Virus record (IMG/VR): IMGVR_UViG_3300024259_001623 | Strand: one strand, 5' to 3' | DNA from: a virus | Taxonomy: Duplodnaviria; Caudoviricetes | Length of the DNA: 64,000 nt | Shown here: positions 31,432 through 58,491 of the stretch, piece by piece | Layout of the letters: each line of letters begins with the position of its first letter | Position numbering within the stretch: the first letter of the stretch is position 1 | Position numbers and translations under genes: made by a program | Notes under the pieces: model-generated | The model's database searches: none | Told to the model about the DNA's origin: nothing | The model's input: only the letters and a program-made list of their open reading frames with translations

Positions 31432-31573
31432 TACCCCTGGCAGGACTCGAACCCGAAACTCCACCATCATACATTTTCTTTATTGGAAGGCAGGGAGGTC
31501 CAGTCTCTAGCTTCCCATAATCATTATGTATTCTGGACATACGGTGTTGTTTTGCCAATTAAACTACAGGGGC
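31432..31573 (-). ncRNA. tRNA-like RNA with an insertion of about 69 nt in the anticodon arm
   Basis: Acceptor GCCCCTG/CAGGGGT, D arm GTTT/AAAC, T loop TTCGAGT, stem CACCGT/ATGGTG enclosing a structured insert. Confidence 0.75.
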
Positions 31574-36552: not shown

Positions 36553-37104
36553 TTAGGACAGGGAGAGAATACGATCTTCCAATTCCTTAATCCTATCTTT
36601 CAGTTTCCTAATGAATAAATGATGAGTAGTATTTGTACATACTGCAAGATTCTCTATTCGATTATCATCTTTGATTCCATTTAGATGATGAATTATTTCG
36701 ATTTTTTTTAGTTTACGGCCTAAATGTTTTTCAATAATCCATCTATGCTGTAAAACAGTTTTTCCTCTTACAGTTGTAGAAAGATATCCTTTTCGATTAT
36801 GTTTCCATTCTCTTTCTTCTAATGGAACAATCTTTTTTTGTTTTCCTCTAGAGTGGTCATAACCGCATTTTTTAGAGCAAAATTTGCATTCACTATTATG
36901 TTTCTTAGCTTTTTCTATCTCAGACGGACTACGATAAAAAGTATTTCCACATTCCTTACATACAAAATTTATACCACTTTTGGGTCTTCCTAAGTCTTTG
37001 ATATACTCAGGGTTACCGTATTTCTTCCATTTTTGATAATGTTTAGTGCAATATCCTTTACAAAAACTTTTCCTATCACACTCTTTAACTTCACATATTT
37101 TCAT
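36553..37104 (-). CDS. HNH homing endonuclease with N-terminal Zn fingers
   Basis: QHRWIIE...IIHHLNGIKDDNRIENL. Confidence 0.85.
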   Translation of the reverse strand: MKICEVKECDRKSFCKGYCTKHYQKWKKYGNPEYIKDLGRPKSGINFVCKECGNTFYRSPSEIEKAKKHNSECKFCSKKCGYDHSRGKQKKIVPLEEREWKHNRKGYLSTTVRGKTVLQHRWIIEKHLGRKLKKIEIIHHLNGIKDDNRIENLAVCTNTTHHLFIRKLKDRIKELEDRILSLS

Positions 37105-37833: not shown

Positions 37834-38128
37834 TTCCTTTCAGAGCGTGAGCTAATATGTTAGGATTAGCTAACATATATTTACCGAGCCTACAAGGCGT
37901 TTCGGCAGACTTCTCCATTTGTCCATGCGAAAAACAGGGAGTTTCATCGTACCAATCTTTATCATGGATTGAACAAGAGAATTGATCCCCATCTTTTTGT
38001 AGATGTTTACATGGTTGACCTTGACCATTATGGTGGATAATATTATCTTGTGCTATACCTTTGCTAGGATCATCAACGATCATAACAGACATTCGGTGAC
38101 AACAATATCCACATCGTAAGCAGATCAT
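37802..38128 (-). CDS. YkgJ-like CxxCxxCC Cys-cluster protein
   Basis: CLRCGYCC...PCKHL...CSIH...PC. Confidence 0.7.
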   Translation of the reverse strand: MICLRCGYCCHRMSVMIVDDPSKGIAQDNIIHHNGQGQPCKHLQKDGDQFSCSIHDKDWYDETPCFSHGQMEKSAETPCRLGKYMLANPNILAHALKGNENGSLARRS

Positions 38129-38642
38129 ATTAGTCTTCTATTGAAACAACAATCGTACCAACGAAAGCAATTGCAAACGCAATCACTCCCATATGGGCAA
38201 GAAAAATGCTACCAACCGCCGCTCCGACCCACATCGAAACAATTGCAATCGCCTTATCTCTGGATTTCATTGTTATTTACCTTTTTGTTGGATTCACCAG
38301 TGCATCCCATTCTTTATCAGTGATATTATCAGGGATAGGACCGCCAGGGACATTGTACCAAGGAACTTCGTCGCTGTTCGTTTCGTCAAACCATTCTGTA
38401 CTGATTCCGAAAGCTACGCTTCCATCAGGGAATTGGACATTAACAAGAGTTTTATCTTCTACAAACCCTTTCCCTGCCTGAAAACGTTCAGGATGGCCGA
38501 TAACATCGAAATCTAGCTTAGAGCCAGCCCGAATTATTTCGGTGGAACCCTCAACATCGTCAAGAGCCTCATCATAGCTACTGATGACTTCAATTTCGCA
38601 GTCTGTGTTGAATTTGACTTTCATGATTTTCTCCAATTTTTA

Positions 38643-38893
38643 ATGGGCGGGCTGGGAATCGAACCCCGCGACCTTCTTCCGAAAGCATTACGATATTGCC
38701 TTGTCTTACAGGGAATTAAACCCTGGTCTCCTGGCCTAATGCCAGGTATCTTCCATGCAATCTGATACCCTTGGTAAGTCGATCAAACTTTGGTAGAGTA
38801 GTGTTGCACAGTTAGCCACTCATTAGACGATCAGACGCAATAATCTCCTAGGACTACTTTCCGGATGCTGTTATGCCAAATAACTTCCGCCCA
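38643..38893 (-). ncRNA. 251-nt tRNA-like RNA with an insertion of about 170-180 nt
   Basis: Acceptor TGGGCGG/CCGCCCA, D arm GTTAT/ATAAC, stem AGCAT/ATGCT, T loop TTCGATT; starts 6 nt after tRNA-Lys. Confidence 0.7.
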
Positions 38894-38899
38894 GAAAAA

Positions 38900-38972
38900 T
38901 ACGCCCACCAGGACTCGAACCTGGAACCGCCACATTAAAAGTGTGATGCTCTGCCAATTGAGCTATAGGCGC
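38900..38972 (-). tRNA. tRNA-Lys (TTT)
   Basis: Loop CTTTTAA, canonical cloverleaf. Confidence 0.93.
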
Positions 38973-40206
38973 ATAAAGAACAAGAGGGCTTATCTTCCAG
39001 CCAGGATTACAACGTCAGTCAATCTAGCTCTTGTTCTCATTAGGAATTCAACATCAAACTACAGGGATTACCAAGTAGACGGAATAGAGTTGGAAGACGC
39101 ATATGCCTTCTTATACTCAGCCGGCAACTCATCCCAAGGAACGATCTTATGCGTTTGCGTTTGTTCATCGTAATACTTGTACGTCTTTTCAGGGGTCTTT
39201 TTCTCATCTTCATACGAAACGGTGGGTATATTGATAGCTACCATTCCAGCAGGGGCCTCTTGTCCCATCGGACTATTCGGTTCCCTACGAGCAATGATAT
39301 TGGCAGTTTCGCCAAGGCCCATTGAATGAGTCACAGGAGCCTTCATAACCTCTAGGGTTGTAGAAGACGTAAAGGTGAGCCAGGCCCCTTTGCCTGTTTC
39401 AAGATGCGTACCGGCACAACCACCAAGAGCAATAGAGAACAAAACCATAGTGAGCATTGCAGAGCGTTTCATCGTTTTTCTCCTTCTATGAGCGATTGAC
39501 TCATGAGCATTTTACGAGTTATTGCAGGGATATGATCAGCAGTCGCCTTTGTGTAGGTCCAATTTGGCCTTACGACGTTTTTTTCTGTTGGAAGGCTTTC
39601 CGCCCCAGGAATTGGAACGAAGTCGTCCTGACGCCCTTACAACGTCTAATTCGGCCTCTCTGGCCGCTCGACGCAGGGACTTGACCAATTTCTGCTGTTC
39701 CGTAAGTTTCTTTTTCTTAGCCATAATAATCCTTCTTTCGTTTTACTATGACAATTTCCTTCATTTTATCAGGGAAGATATACCTGATCTGAATAGCACC
39801 AATGCCCATTAGCCAATATAAAAACCACCTTATTGGCCCTAATGTCATCTTCATCTACTTCATCAACATTAGTGCCGCACTTTGTACGAGGATAATCGGT
39901 GATCTGCATTTGTTCTATCTCAGTTCTACCGAAACGAGTATGGATTTCGTCGCCGATTTTAATCATTTTGTTATCCCAAGGCTATTTGAGGATCATACCA
40001 ATACGCAGTAAATTCCTTTGCCTTCATGTGTCTGGCCCATAAAGGCTTTTGCCAAACAAACGAAGGTATCCATTCTTCATCTTTTTGACAATAGCTGGCA
40101 GGGACATTCTTGCAATAATGATCCTTATCAATCAAGAAATAACGCCGATCAAGAAGAAAACATCGGCCAGTTTGATTATGTCTAATAACAACATAAACAT
40201 TCGACA

Positions 40207-54106: not shown

Positions 54107-55234
54107 TTATCTCTCATCAGCAAGGTAGATAGGACTACGCTGCTTGATGATTAAACGACGCCCCTTAATATACTCTTCTTCCAGTGGCTTGATAACAATG
54201 CCTTCTCTGCGAACATCCGGATAAAGCATAGAATACCCATTAGAGGCTTGCTGTATCGTTACACCCTTCGGGAACAGATCAGTCTCGTGAGGATTCTTAG
54301 ACAGCAACCAATCTTCTAATGTTATATTATAGCCAAGAGTAGGAACAAGTATCAATCCTGCCTTCTTGCCAAACACCTTATTAATGTAATCAATAAAGAT
54401 CGGTGTATTAACCCAAAGACCATTGATTTTAAGGTCAAACAGTCTCACCGTATTCTCTGGGAATTTATAGATATTTTTTTGGACTTTCGGACCAAGCATC
54501 TCTCCATAAACAGTAACGCTTTTGCCTGGATGTTCATCGGCAATTGCATTAGCAAAATCCAAAATACCTTCTCTAATAGCTACTTGCCACCAAGGATTAG
54601 TAGACTTATCCTCAGTTTCAATAGTATGTCTACGAGAGTTAACGTACTCAGTTCTATCAACTCCAATAGTGACAGAGAAATTAGACCCTTCTACTTTCTC
54701 AGAAATCCAGCAAGGTCTAGTCATTAGTGCTTCCACTAGATGCTTATACCTTTCTGCACCTTCAATATCATAGATAGTAAGATCTTCAGGTAAAGTAGTA
54801 AGTTTAGTCTGATTCCCCCCCATCATGCTAAACTGAACAGGTGGCTCATATTTCTCTACTCCAAAATACTGAGTTAACTGTTCGGTGGTAAAAGGCTCAT
54901 CAATCTCGGTAGGATCAGGCTTCTCAACATCCTCGCCCAGCATATCCAGCTTACCTACAATGCCTTGACTAATCTCATCCCTTAGACGGACAGTTTTGAC
55001 ACGGTTTTTCTTACTGCCGGATAATTTTCCCAGTAATCCCATCTTCTCAGAAACCCAATCAGGAAGCAGAGAATCGATAGGGAAGTAGATAACCTCTTCA
55101 CCGGAAGTATAAACACCTTTAGGAATAACAAATTGAAATTCCATACCATCCAGTTTAGCCAGTTCAAGTCTATCTGCATTAGGATGCGGATATACTTTCT
55201 CTATAGTCTCAATTGTTACTCCGAAAAATGCCAT
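54107..55234 (-). CDS. RNA ligase, DRB0094/Rnl2-like with an N-terminal OB fold
   Basis: HPNADRLEL; SEKVEGSN; YGEMLG; REGIVIK. Confidence 0.85.
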   Translation of the reverse strand: MAFFGVTIETIEKVYPHPNADRLELAKLDGMEFQFVIPKGVYTSGEEVIYFPIDSLLPDWVSEKMGLLGKLSGSKKNRVKTVRLRDEISQGIVGKLDMLGEDVEKPDPTEIDEPFTTEQLTQYFGVEKYEPPVQFSMMGGNQTKLTTLPEDLTIYDIEGAERYKHLVEALMTRPCWISEKVEGSNFSVTIGVDRTEYVNSRRHTIETEDKSTNPWWQVAIREGILDFANAIADEHPGKSVTVYGEMLGPKVQKNIYKFPENTVRLFDLKINGLWVNTPIFIDYINKVFGKKAGLILVPTLGYNITLEDWLLSKNPHETDLFPKGVTIQQASNGYSMLYPDVRREGIVIKPLEEEYIKGRRLIIKQRSPIYLADER

Positions 55235-56479: not shown

Positions 56480-57328
56480 CTAAAATGCAACACAATAATC
56501 TGTTTTTTCGAGGAATTTTTTCAATTTACGTAAACCGTTTTCCTCATGGTGTTTAGCCCACGGCCTGCTTACTCCAAGCTCTTTACCAACATCAGAATAA
56601 GTGGGTTTCTTTCCATCAAAAAAGTATCTCATTTCAACAGCGACTCTTTCTTGGTAAGTTAGTCCAGCAGAATTATCTTTTAATGCTGTTCTAATAACAT
56701 CTATTAACTTACTATAATCGGTGGATAGATCTTCTACATCTTCTCCATCTTCAGTGTCATAAGAGACAGGGAACTTTTCTTCTCTCTCTTGTTTCTTCTT
56801 AATTTCTCCGGCAAAAGTTTTTATAATAGACCAAGTTGCATAAGTCGAAAACTTATTGCCTCTAGAAATATCGAATGTCTTAATAGCTCTCAGTAATGCT
56901 TCATTACCGACAGATACCATATCTTCATAATCTAAACCACTCTTCAAAAATCTCTTTGTTGTATTTATGACTAGTGCTAGATTATATTCTACTAACTTCT
57001 TTTGCATTGCTAATACAACTTTATACCAATGCATTATCTCTTGTTTAGCTGTATCCGTGAGTCCATCAGGATATGACTCTTTTACCTGAGAAATTCTTTT
57101 TCGCGCTAAATTATAACGCAAAAATACATTCCGTTCTTCTTCCCGACTTAATACAACAATATTTTTAGACGTTCTAACAGGAAGATCACAATTGAAAAAC
57201 CAAGATACATCCACATCCTCTGGAAGGTCTTGGTTCTCAATGCGTTCAGAAATTGTAGAATCCTCAAAATCAGGATGGTCTACGTATCTATTCTGTTCTA
57301 AAATATTCTTTAAGTCTTCTAGTTCCAT
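56480..57328 (-). CDS. Sigma-70 family RNA polymerase sigma factor
   Basis: Region 2 NLALV...EDMVSVGNEALLRAIKTFDISRGNKFSTYATW; region 4 TYSDVGKELGVSR. Confidence 0.9.
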   Translation of the reverse strand: MELEDLKNILEQNRYVDHPDFEDSTISERIENQDLPEDVDVSWFFNCDLPVRTSKNIVVLSREEERNVFLRYNLARKRISQVKESYPDGLTDTAKQEIMHWYKVVLAMQKKLVEYNLALVINTTKRFLKSGLDYEDMVSVGNEALLRAIKTFDISRGNKFSTYATWSIIKTFAGEIKKKQEREEKFPVSYDTEDGEDVEDLSTDYSKLIDVIRTALKDNSAGLTYQERVAVEMRYFFDGKKPTYSDVGKELGVSRPWAKHHEENGLRKLKKFLEKTDYCVAF

Positions 57329-58491
57329 TACTTCTCTTCTTCAAAACGATTCATAGCAGTAGAAGGCTCAAAACCTTCCAATACATTGCCAGTAGGTCTA
57401 AACAATTCGAACAAACTATTACGAAGTTTAGACTTAGACCCAGTTCGTATAGTCTCTAAAAAATCTCGTTTTCTACAGGGAAAAACGAATCTTTTAACCC
57501 TTGGGTCGATAGTATTGTTTGGATTCTGCAAATACATTCCTAACTCTTTATCACCCAACTCTTTAGTAGATAGATAAACCTCTTCTACCTCAGTTAAAAG
57601 ATCGTCCAGCTTCCCATTCAGTATAGATTCTATAGCATCAAAATCTTTACGAAATTCCTCTGGCAAATCTTTTTTCGCATTTTCAAGATCATCTAAGTTT
57701 CTCATCATGTCCCAGATAACCAATGGAGTGCAATTAGAAACTAAGCGATGCAACCTGCAATACTCATCACCCTTGATCTTGATACGATAACCATTAGTAA
57801 ACCGTACAACGAAACCCTCTTCATTATACGACAACGTTTTGCAAACTCCCAACATATCATCCAAAGAATCAAAATGAGCAGTTTCAGTCAAACCCATTCC
57901 AGTCTCTCTACTGGTGGCTTCCAATATCTCTCTTTGCAATTCATGACCAGTATCTACAAAGTACCCCCCCAGTAAAACTAATCCCTCAAAATCATAAGTT
58001 ACAACAATGCGATTCTGAGTATAGATTATTTCCACTAAATAAGTAGCATTCTCATGCATATAATCAAGCATGTAGCTCTGTAAATTCTTCTCAGCCCAAA
58101 CAGCTTGATCAGAAGCAAAAGAACCACGAGTAGCTACATTCCATTTTCCATTCCAAAAATAAACGATCCCTAAAGATCCATCCATCTTCAAAGTAGTAGA
58201 AAAACCCAAATCAGGTAGGTCTTCTTCTACCTCTCCATAATTGAAGAACTTGGGAAAAGGAGCAGCGACTACCTTCTTTTGAGAAGGGCAAAGGATTAAA
58301 CCTCTGGCCACAAGAGTAAAAATGTTCCAATGCTTATCATAAGTAGCAGTAGCACTATAATTGAAAAGCTCTAAATCATCTTTAGTTTGAACGTTGATGT
58401 ATCCAGCCTCTACCTCTTCCTGAAGACCTTTATACAAGTCATCGAACGGAAGAGTTAAAGCAGGATGTATGTGATATTCTATTTTTTCCAT
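57328..58491 (-). CDS. T4 Rnl1-like RNA ligase
   Basis: ARGLIL...PFPKFFN; KMDGSLG; EGFVV. Confidence 0.9.
   Translation of the reverse strand: MEKIEYHIHPALTLPFDDLYKGLQEEVEAGYINVQTKDDLELFNYSATATYDKHWNIFTLVARGLILCPSQKKVVAAPFPKFFNYGEVEEDLPDLGFSTTLKMDGSLGIVYFWNGKWNVATRGSFASDQAVWAEKNLQSYMLDYMHENATYLVEIIYTQNRIVVTYDFEGLVLLGGYFVDTGHELQREILEATSRETGMGLTETAHFDSLDDMLGVCKTLSYNEEGFVVRFTNGYRIKIKGDEYCRLHRLVSNCTPLVIWDMMRNLDDLENAKKDLPEEFRKDFDAIESILNGKLDDLLTEVEEVYLSTKELGDKELGMYLQNPNNTIDPRVKRFVFPCRKRDFLETIRTGSKSKLRNSLFELFRPTGNVLEGFEPSTAMNRFEEEK

Follow-up and report, generated by a model that had tools for sequence, protein, structure and literature searches.

Species 1 and 2 RNAs of phage T4 and the ‘tRNA-like stable RNAs’ of phage T5 are long-known non-decoding RNAs, encoded within or beside phage tRNA genes and co-transcribed with them. 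More generally, the tRNA-like RNAs of large phages are candidate decoys against host tRNA-cutting defences, or candidate partners of phage RNA-repair and Ro60 systems. Among the ‘enigmatic’ tRNA introns of Lak megaphages is one that interrupts a tRNA-Thr(UGU) and may itself encode a tRNA (Devoto et al. 2019, PMC6784885), and similar tRNA inserts have been noted in jumbo phages (PMC13037316). The 251-nucleotide (nt) RNA described here, encoded by an uncultivated marine megaphage, is of a kind already known: from phage tRNA-like RNAs, from tRNA frames with tRNA-like inserts in huge phages and from this very genome. It differs in its large insert, in the presence of two tRNA elbows together with a long rod, and in the lack of an anticodon loop in either tRNA layer.

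The RNA lies on the minus strand of the 64,000-nt stretch of DNA that was analysed (hereafter, the window). Proteins of the window recur on contigs of up to approximately 434 kb, nearly all of its genes are on the minus strand and its tRNA genes are scattered. Within a tightly packed run of co-oriented genes, the locus is an ORF-free stretch, separated by 5–6 nt from a canonical tRNA-Lys(UUU) on its upstream side and ending 18 nt before the ATG of a 115-aa ORF (Table 1). A motif upstream of the tRNA, TCCCTG-N13-AATT, has 15 copies in the window (18811 to 62689), all on the minus strand, against 0.19 expected, and is by its sequence a phage-specific promoter-like signal. No terminator-like site was found in 38100–39300. 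The small gap, the upstream promoter motif and the lack of a terminator-like site in this interval make co-transcription with tRNA-Lys plausible. The hairpin between motif and tRNA (−19.4 kcal/mol, z = −2.77; 3 of 200 shuffles fold equally well) may be a leader or processing hairpin. The window also carries a T4 Rnl1-type RNA ligase and a second RNA ligase (PF09414 type), with ligase genes at 57328–58491 and 54107–55234, as well as a PARP and homing endonucleases, and an HNH gene is found at 36553–37104. A further phage RNA ligase gene, with intein-splicing domain matches (PF14890 with PF09414), is present at L179:2481–3092 and L180:12299–12910.

Table 1. Features of the 251-nt RNA and its surroundings. 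RNA positions (p) are counted from U1, which is window position 38893 on the minus strand, so that window coordinate = 38894 − p.
Feature	Window position	Strand	Remarks
Composite tRNA-like RNA, whole, 251 nt	38643..38893	-	ORF-free
Outer acceptor, 5′ strand UGGGCGG, p1–7	38887..38893	-	pairs with p244–250; pair probabilities 0.76–1.00
Outer acceptor, 3′ strand CCGCCCA + U	38643..38650	-	CCA not encoded
Outer D arm, p10–24, GUUAU / loop UUGGC / AUAAC	38870..38884	-	pair probability ~0.55
AGCAU (p25–29), possible outer anticodon-stem strand, and small 5′ hairpin p29–48	38846..38869	-	
AUGCU (p206–210) and outer variable hairpin with GGAA tetraloop (p209–222)	38672..38688	-	pair probability 0.71
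Outer T arm, p226–242, loop UUCGAUU	38652..38668	-	one G·A mismatch or bulged A
Inner domain, p49–202	38692..38845	-	closed by 3+5+4-bp stem p49–61/188–202; pair probabilities 0.6–0.9
8-nt tandem repeat CGUCUGAU/CGUCUAAU, p57–72	38822..38837	-	read from sequence
59-nt rod, p83–141, 8 + 6 + 5 bp	38753..38811	-	pair probability ~0.55–0.6
6-bp hairpin CCUGGC-AUUAG-GCCAGG, p148–164	38730..38746	-	pair probability 0.96–0.97
Inner T arm CAGGG-UUUAAUU-CCCUG, p169–185, perfect	38709..38725	-	pair probability 0.95–1.0
tRNA-Lys(UUU), canonical, directly upstream	38899..38973	-	ARAGORN; Rfam RF00005 67.9 bits at 38900–38972
GGAG ribosome-binding site (38634–38631) and 115-aa orphan ORF (ATG 38624)	38277..38634	-	
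Promoter-like motif TCCCTG-N13-AATT (TCCCTGT-N12-AATT)	39045..39067	-	~72 nt upstream of tRNA-Lys
Possible leader hairpin, 11-bp stem enclosing ~40 nt	38976..39038	-	between promoter motif and tRNA-Lys

Our analysis confirms the tRNA-framed RNA of 251 nt proposed in the initial annotation, and all of the features described there are found in the sequence. The outer acceptor comprises seven Watson–Crick pairs (1–7/244–250, UGGGCGG/CCGCCCA), the 5-bp D stem (10–14/20–24, GUUAU/AUAAC) closes a loop containing GG (UUGGC), and the T arm (226–230/238–242) presents a canonical loop, UUCGAUU, on an imperfect stem, which contains either a G·A mismatch together with an additional nucleotide, C243, or a bulge at A241. 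A short variable hairpin with a GNRA cap occupies the place of a long variable arm. The annotated AGCAT/ATGCT flanks are likewise present, as AGCAU (25–29) and AUGCU (206–210) enclosing 176 nt, but their pairing is thermodynamically disfavoured: the helix has an ensemble probability of approximately 0, and a fold in which it is forced reaches −72.2 kcal/mol compared with −76.6 for the minimum free energy structure. A tRNA-Sec-like 8/5 reading of the outer frame was considered and rejected; it needs an A·C pair, and no UCA anticodon is present.

The outer tRNA frame is non-random. A strict descriptor required seven Watson–Crick acceptor pairs, 2 nt, a D stem of 4 bp whose loop contains GG, the sequence G53-UUCRA-C61 together with four or more of the five T-stem pairs, and a span of 100–360 nt. 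It has a single match in the 64 kb (both strands), exactly at the 251-nt RNA, and none in 300 shuffles; a looser descriptor is unspecific, with 39 matches in 50 shuffles. The two T arms have canonical or near-canonical loops and pair probabilities near 1, and the chance of a second perfect T arm arising in 170 nt is, by our own estimate, approximately 6 × 10^−4. The folding energy of the whole molecule is just marginally better than that of shuffles (z = −1.73).

The insert, approximately 169–176 nt long, takes the place of the outer frame’s anticodon arm. Its 5′ part holds a small hairpin and the 59-nt rod; then follow, on its 3′ side and in this order, the 6-bp hairpin, a 4-nt linker, the perfect T arm and the 3′ strand of the closing stem. 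The inner module thereby formed has a bulged closing stem of 12 bp adjoined by the T arm, with the 6-bp hairpin standing where a long variable arm would be; its acceptor is mismatched and the 3′ end of the insert carries no NCCA. Both tRNA layers are imperfect, the outer one in its T stem (mismatch or bulge) and the inner one in its acceptor and in having no GG D loop. The only similarity of the inner T arm to outside sequences, a weak one, is to the T arms of phage tRNAs. Both copies of the 8-nt tandem repeat are able to pair with AGAC at p188–191, so that two alternative inner ‘acceptor’ pairings are possible, and the weak inner model given by ARAGORN takes the second copy. That model appears at 75% stringency only, reads the module as an ‘Ala(UGC)’ with two A·A mismatches and a further 35-nt insert, and clashes with the much more stable 8-bp helix of the rod.

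Several smaller patterns within the RNA were considered and set aside. An internal duplication was rejected because the outer and inner halves have just the T loop in common. The CGGAA direct repeats on either side of the insert are unlike a target-site duplication in that no tRNA is rebuilt when they are collapsed. The internal loop of the rod is symmetric, ACCA/ACCA (p100–103 and p119–122); the RNA has three such motifs in its 251 nt, which is not significant, approximately one being expected.

tmRNA, too, combines a tRNA-like domain of acceptor and T arm with a large insertion in its centre, and the initial annotation called the RNA tmRNA-like in outline but lacking G3-U70 and a recognisable tag ORF. 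Our results agree. The third acceptor pair is G3-C in either register, so there is no G3-U70; no tag ORF is recognisable, with stops in all three frames; ARAGORN in tmRNA mode (-m) reports 0 genes. The Rfam tmRNA models touch the T arm only, with 12.4 bits for beta_tmRNA (gathering 84) and 9.2 for tmRNA_permuted (gathering 47). The RNA has no pseudoknot series and retains a full D arm. A short or degenerate tmRNA, which would account for the shared outline and for those 9–12 bits but is contradicted by the other observations, including scores far below the gathering values of 47–84 bits, has in our view practically no probability.

The RNA is not a canonical tRNA either. Such a tRNA would score at least 29 bits with RF00005 and present a 7-nt anticodon loop with U33 and R37; here RF00005 has no match at E ≤ 10, and ARAGORN stays negative at its default stringency, whether introns are allowed or not. 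At 80% stringency it proposes a ‘His(AUG)’ tRNA, a poor model that has A33 and requires an intron of 169 nt. Rfam searches, run on 701-nt and 264-nt slices at the gathering threshold and at E ≤ 10, returned nothing credible; at E ≤ 10 there are just chance or T-arm-sized matches, the best being a chance match to CRISPR-DR54 at 22 bits. The group I intron model RF00028 (Intron_gpI) finds no match at E ≤ 10 with permissive filters, and group I introns are approximately 200 nt or more in length, compared with the 169–176 nt of this insert. No self-cleaving ribozyme, YrlA or SRP model of Rfam matches the 251-nt RNA.

Every possible single excision was scanned for a product with a variable region of 3–24 nt and an anticodon arm in which a paired 5-bp stem closes a 7-nt loop that has U33 and R37. 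None restores a fully paired anticodon stem together with U33 and a purine at 37; the scan yields just two equivalent solutions, both with a C·A mismatch and the unnatural anticodon AUC. The loop CCGGAAA (GGA, Ser) proposed initially is arithmetically right, by joining at 36/206, but places C rather than U at position 33. The G73 discriminator is a feature of bacterial and phage tRNA-Ser, and the outer frame is without it. With ARAGORN and Rfam negative, no fitting excision, C33 and no G73, the suggestion of an intron-containing tRNA-Ser is unsupported. A bulge-helix-bulge could not be drawn at the junctions by hand on the predicted fold, which has a 3-nt bulge (GUA, p203–205) on the 3′ side only and, on the 5′ side, 19 unpaired or hairpin nucleotides plus a 1-nt bulge. 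The RNA has no 7-nt anticodon-type loop and decoding is therefore impossible: neither layer of the predicted structure can decode.

These observations bear on an explanation in which the insert would be a tRNA-shaped intron of a split tRNA. RNase P and the 3′ tRNA-processing nuclease would excise the inner module, the acceptor, D and T arms would keep the outer halves associated, and a phage RNA ligase would reseal these halves into a working tRNA or tRNA-like RNA. We consider this improbable. The position of the insert at the anticodon-loop place, with a T arm adjoining its closing helix, speaks for it, as do the Rnl1-type and PF09414 RNA ligases encoded by the phage and the Lak and jumbo phage tRNA ‘introns’ that may encode tRNA (PMC6784885; PMC13037316). 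So does a tRNA-Ile(UAU) in the window (31432–31573, minus strand) with a 68-nt insert in its anticodon loop, for which ARAGORN makes an intron call at default stringency and the Rfam tRNA model gives 36 bits; its exons resemble a real tRNA, unlike those of the 251-nt RNA. The split-tRNA design fails this key test, because the exons rebuild no tRNA and no excision gives a paired anticodon stem with U33 and R37. Cuts at plausible inner ends (p49/202, p57/193 and p66/192) leave loops of 10–40 nt, and the junctions are undefined by any intron-less allele. The inner module, with its mismatched acceptor and no 3′ NCCA tail, is seen by ARAGORN at reduced stringency only, and the insert has three times the length of described tRNA-shaped inserts.

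A related ‘double tRNA’ reading, in which RNase P and the 3′ nuclease would free the inner module and the Rnl1-type ligase would reseal the outer halves, appears very remote to us, and equally so the guidance of this release by the inner acceptor-like stem and T arm. The ACCA motifs of the rod might also contribute to the release, as ACCA after a helix is reminiscent of an RNase P guide. To our knowledge, protein-only splicing of this design has not yet been shown in bacteria or phages; if the reading were true, a single gene would give two non-decoding tRNA mimics by this route.

Comparison with the Lak tRNA introns reveals a similar overall arrangement: a huge phage, a tRNA-shaped frame, an anticodon-region insert with tRNA-like features and a sequence identical across samples. 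In Lak phages, however, joining the exons restores a recognisable tRNA, and both filled and empty alleles occur. For the 251-nt RNA, none of the excisions leaves a usable anticodon arm, no allele lacking the insert is known, and the insert of approximately 170 nt has an added long rod. The stable RNAs of the T4 and T5 tRNA clusters provide a second comparison, as non-decoding RNAs beside phage tRNAs with tRNA-like termini. The 251-nt RNA, if expressed, fits this description: it adjoins tRNA-Lys, has a promoter motif in common with it and no terminator, and its acceptor and T frame are significant by the strict descriptor. The likeness groups these RNAs by function and implies no homology; among 50,697 phage records, blastn found no sequence homology to the T4 and T5 stable RNAs, with T-arm-sized matches only. 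We know of no nested second T arm described for T4 species 1 and 2 or T5 RNA1–3.

YrlA-type Y RNAs (Rfam RF02553) are alike in fusing a tRNA-like module to a long bulged helix. In Y RNAs this helix is built from the 5′ and 3′ ends and binds Ro60. In YrlA the module is circularly permuted, with the T arm first, whereas the inner module here has the normal order, with the T arm last. RF02553 scores the phage’s own Y RNAs at approximately 29 bits and has no match on the 251-nt RNA, from which the phage Ro60 handle GGGUCGAA ... ACUUACCUAGU is absent except for the 7-mer ACUUACC; the partner strand gives this shared 7-mer no support. The YrlA-type array and the 251-nt RNA belong to the same genome, with its theme of RNA repair and quality control. 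This array (L180:14100–15465), approximately 14–15 kb beyond the window end, lies upstream of a Ro60 gene; its members have the handle in common and Rfam YrlA recognises part of it. One member, at 14968–15041, scores 33.7 bits with the Rfam tRNA model, has a tRNA-Lys(UUU)-type anticodon loop (CUUUUAA) and looks like a mimic of an anticodon-nuclease target.

Our searches found no homologue or paralogue of the 251-nt RNA in phage, viral, metagenome and genome collections. An exact 30-mer had no match in the viral contig collection; two T loops at matching spacing in IMG/VR, JGI metagenome contigs and GTDB genomes led to unrelated loci only; and the 50,697 phage records gave tRNA-Lys and T-arm-sized matches only. 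BLAST found nothing similar in ten IMG/VR records that are related by their Rnl1 gene, of which four are 310–467 kb long; in five of the ten, a covariance model built on the 3′ 110 nt was run as well. Ordinary tRNAs were all that these searches returned. No paralogue was found by nhmmer or blastn-short in approximately 104 kb of the phage genome (the window and ~39 kb beyond its end). Four assemblies of the phage, the window and three others, are 100% identical over 6.3 kb; with these identical and no homologue found, no helix has covariation support. Both flanking ORFs are orphans, one of them having a 58%-identical relative on contigs without a tRNA-like gene. The nearest sister phage is seen through two nearby proteins, a PRTase (63% identity) and a 222-aa protein (54% identity), on contigs of ENA assemblies ERZ23498360, ERZ23498361 and ERZ23498365; as judged from gene spacing alone, the corresponding position of its genome apparently offers no space for an RNA of this kind.

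The proposal of a new tRNA-mimic class holds in so far as the frame is tRNA-derived, is not a tmRNA and does not decode. ‘New class’ is too strong, because the RNA is a single orphan sequence without covariation support, because insert-bearing tRNA-shaped RNAs are numerous in the same phage, and because tRNA genes with tRNA-like inserts have been reported in Lak and jumbo phages (PMC6784885; PMC13037316). In this phage, large structured inserts interrupt the variable or anticodon region of further tRNA-shaped RNAs at L180:1357–1520, L180:2452–2930 and L180:3384–3484, none of these RNAs being a sequence relative of the 251-nt RNA. In IMG/VR, type II tRNA-Leu-like frames (GUGGCGGAAUUGGUAGACGC) on contigs L022, L036, L050, L016, L017/L061 and L086 contain 50–125-nt inserts with a second T loop, which shows that nested T-loop designs recur in unrelated phages. 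Like the 251-nt RNA, the insert-bearing RNAs of both sets keep the acceptor, D and T frame intact and have a large structured insert for the anticodon or variable arm; they differ from it in showing no detectable sequence homology, in the positions and shapes of their inserts and in frames that are mostly tRNA-Leu-like.

In tRNAs and in minihelix substrates, the stacked acceptor and T arm form the unit that is recognised in RNase P cleavage, 3′ processing and CCA addition. With about even confidence, we regard the 251-nt RNA as a genuine non-decoding, tRNA-derived composite that would be co-transcribed with tRNA-Lys, matured like a tRNA and act as a tRNA mimic. In the sequence of events that we propose, the phage promoter at approximately 39067 would give one transcript containing tRNA-Lys(UUU), the 251-nt RNA and the downstream mRNA. 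RNase P would cut at the foot of the outer acceptor helix, to be followed by 3′ trimming and CCA addition. The outer tRNA frame would hold the second tRNA-like module at its anticodon-arm place, and, since the outer acceptor and T arm present the recognition unit of tRNA processing, a stable RNA of approximately 250 nt with two tRNA ‘elbows’ should accumulate. This mimic could occupy a protein that recognises tRNA shape, such as a host defence enzyme that targets tRNA (a nuclease or modifier) or a host processing enzyme; an alternative partner would be an RNA-repair or quality-control protein of the phage itself. These two options are the most economical guess in view of the RNA ligases, Ro60, Y RNAs and many tRNA look-alikes that the phage encodes. 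The analysis shows the anatomy of the RNA, its departure from chance, its place in the genome and that it falls outside known families; expression, processing, stability and a binding role are what we infer for it.

The main rival to a functional composite is a decaying chimera: a tRNA or tRNA-like gene hit by insertion or duplication of tRNA-cluster DNA, transcribed and functionless. It is possible, though on the unlikely side. The orphan status and lack of relatives, the imperfect tRNA features of both layers and the weak folding z-score would fit decay; homing endonucleases and mobile DNA abound in the genome, and the window has the HNH gene; the internal tandem repeat hints at slippage; and the flanking genes are orphans, which points to a hypervariable region. 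Decay would not be expected, however, to leave predicted helices (7, 5, 12, 8+6+5, 6 and 5 bp) that are free of mismatches except for one in the outer T stem. The element moreover fits exactly between tRNA-Lys and the next ribosome-binding site, and many other tRNA-like RNAs of comparable elaboration are retained in this phage.

In organelles, and also in the case of MALAT1/mascRNA, tRNA-like elements are established as punctuation of polycistronic transcripts. The 251-nt RNA could by analogy be a cis-acting leader with no role in trans, its tRNA-like shape recruiting RNase P, separating tRNA-Lys from the mRNA and setting the mRNA 5′ end. Besides these precedents, its place between a tRNA and an ORF of one transcription unit, so close to the start codon, would suit this function. 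We nevertheless judge it decidedly improbable: the plain 3′ end of tRNA-Lys already offers a processing site, an RNA of 251 nt that has two elbows and a long rod is far more than punctuation would require, and the homologue of the downstream ORF in other contigs is without such a leader.

The composite RNA has an unusually clear two-layer design, with two tRNA elbows on one molecule, and it adjoins tRNA-Lys(UUU), a classic target of anticodon nucleases. If expressed and stable, it would be a compact test case for what such mimics bind and for whether tRNA-processing enzymes cut nested tRNA shapes; as a single orphan sequence, its value is that of a lead, not a result. The insert-bearing tRNA-shaped RNAs, the Y RNAs by Ro60 and the RNA ligases together indicate that tRNA mimicry is a recurrent theme of this phage. 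At L166:3055–3190 and, with the same sequence, in L170, a phage ORF is followed downstream by a tandem pair of mini tRNA-like hairpins, each with an acceptor-like stem and a T arm and neither with a D or anticodon arm.
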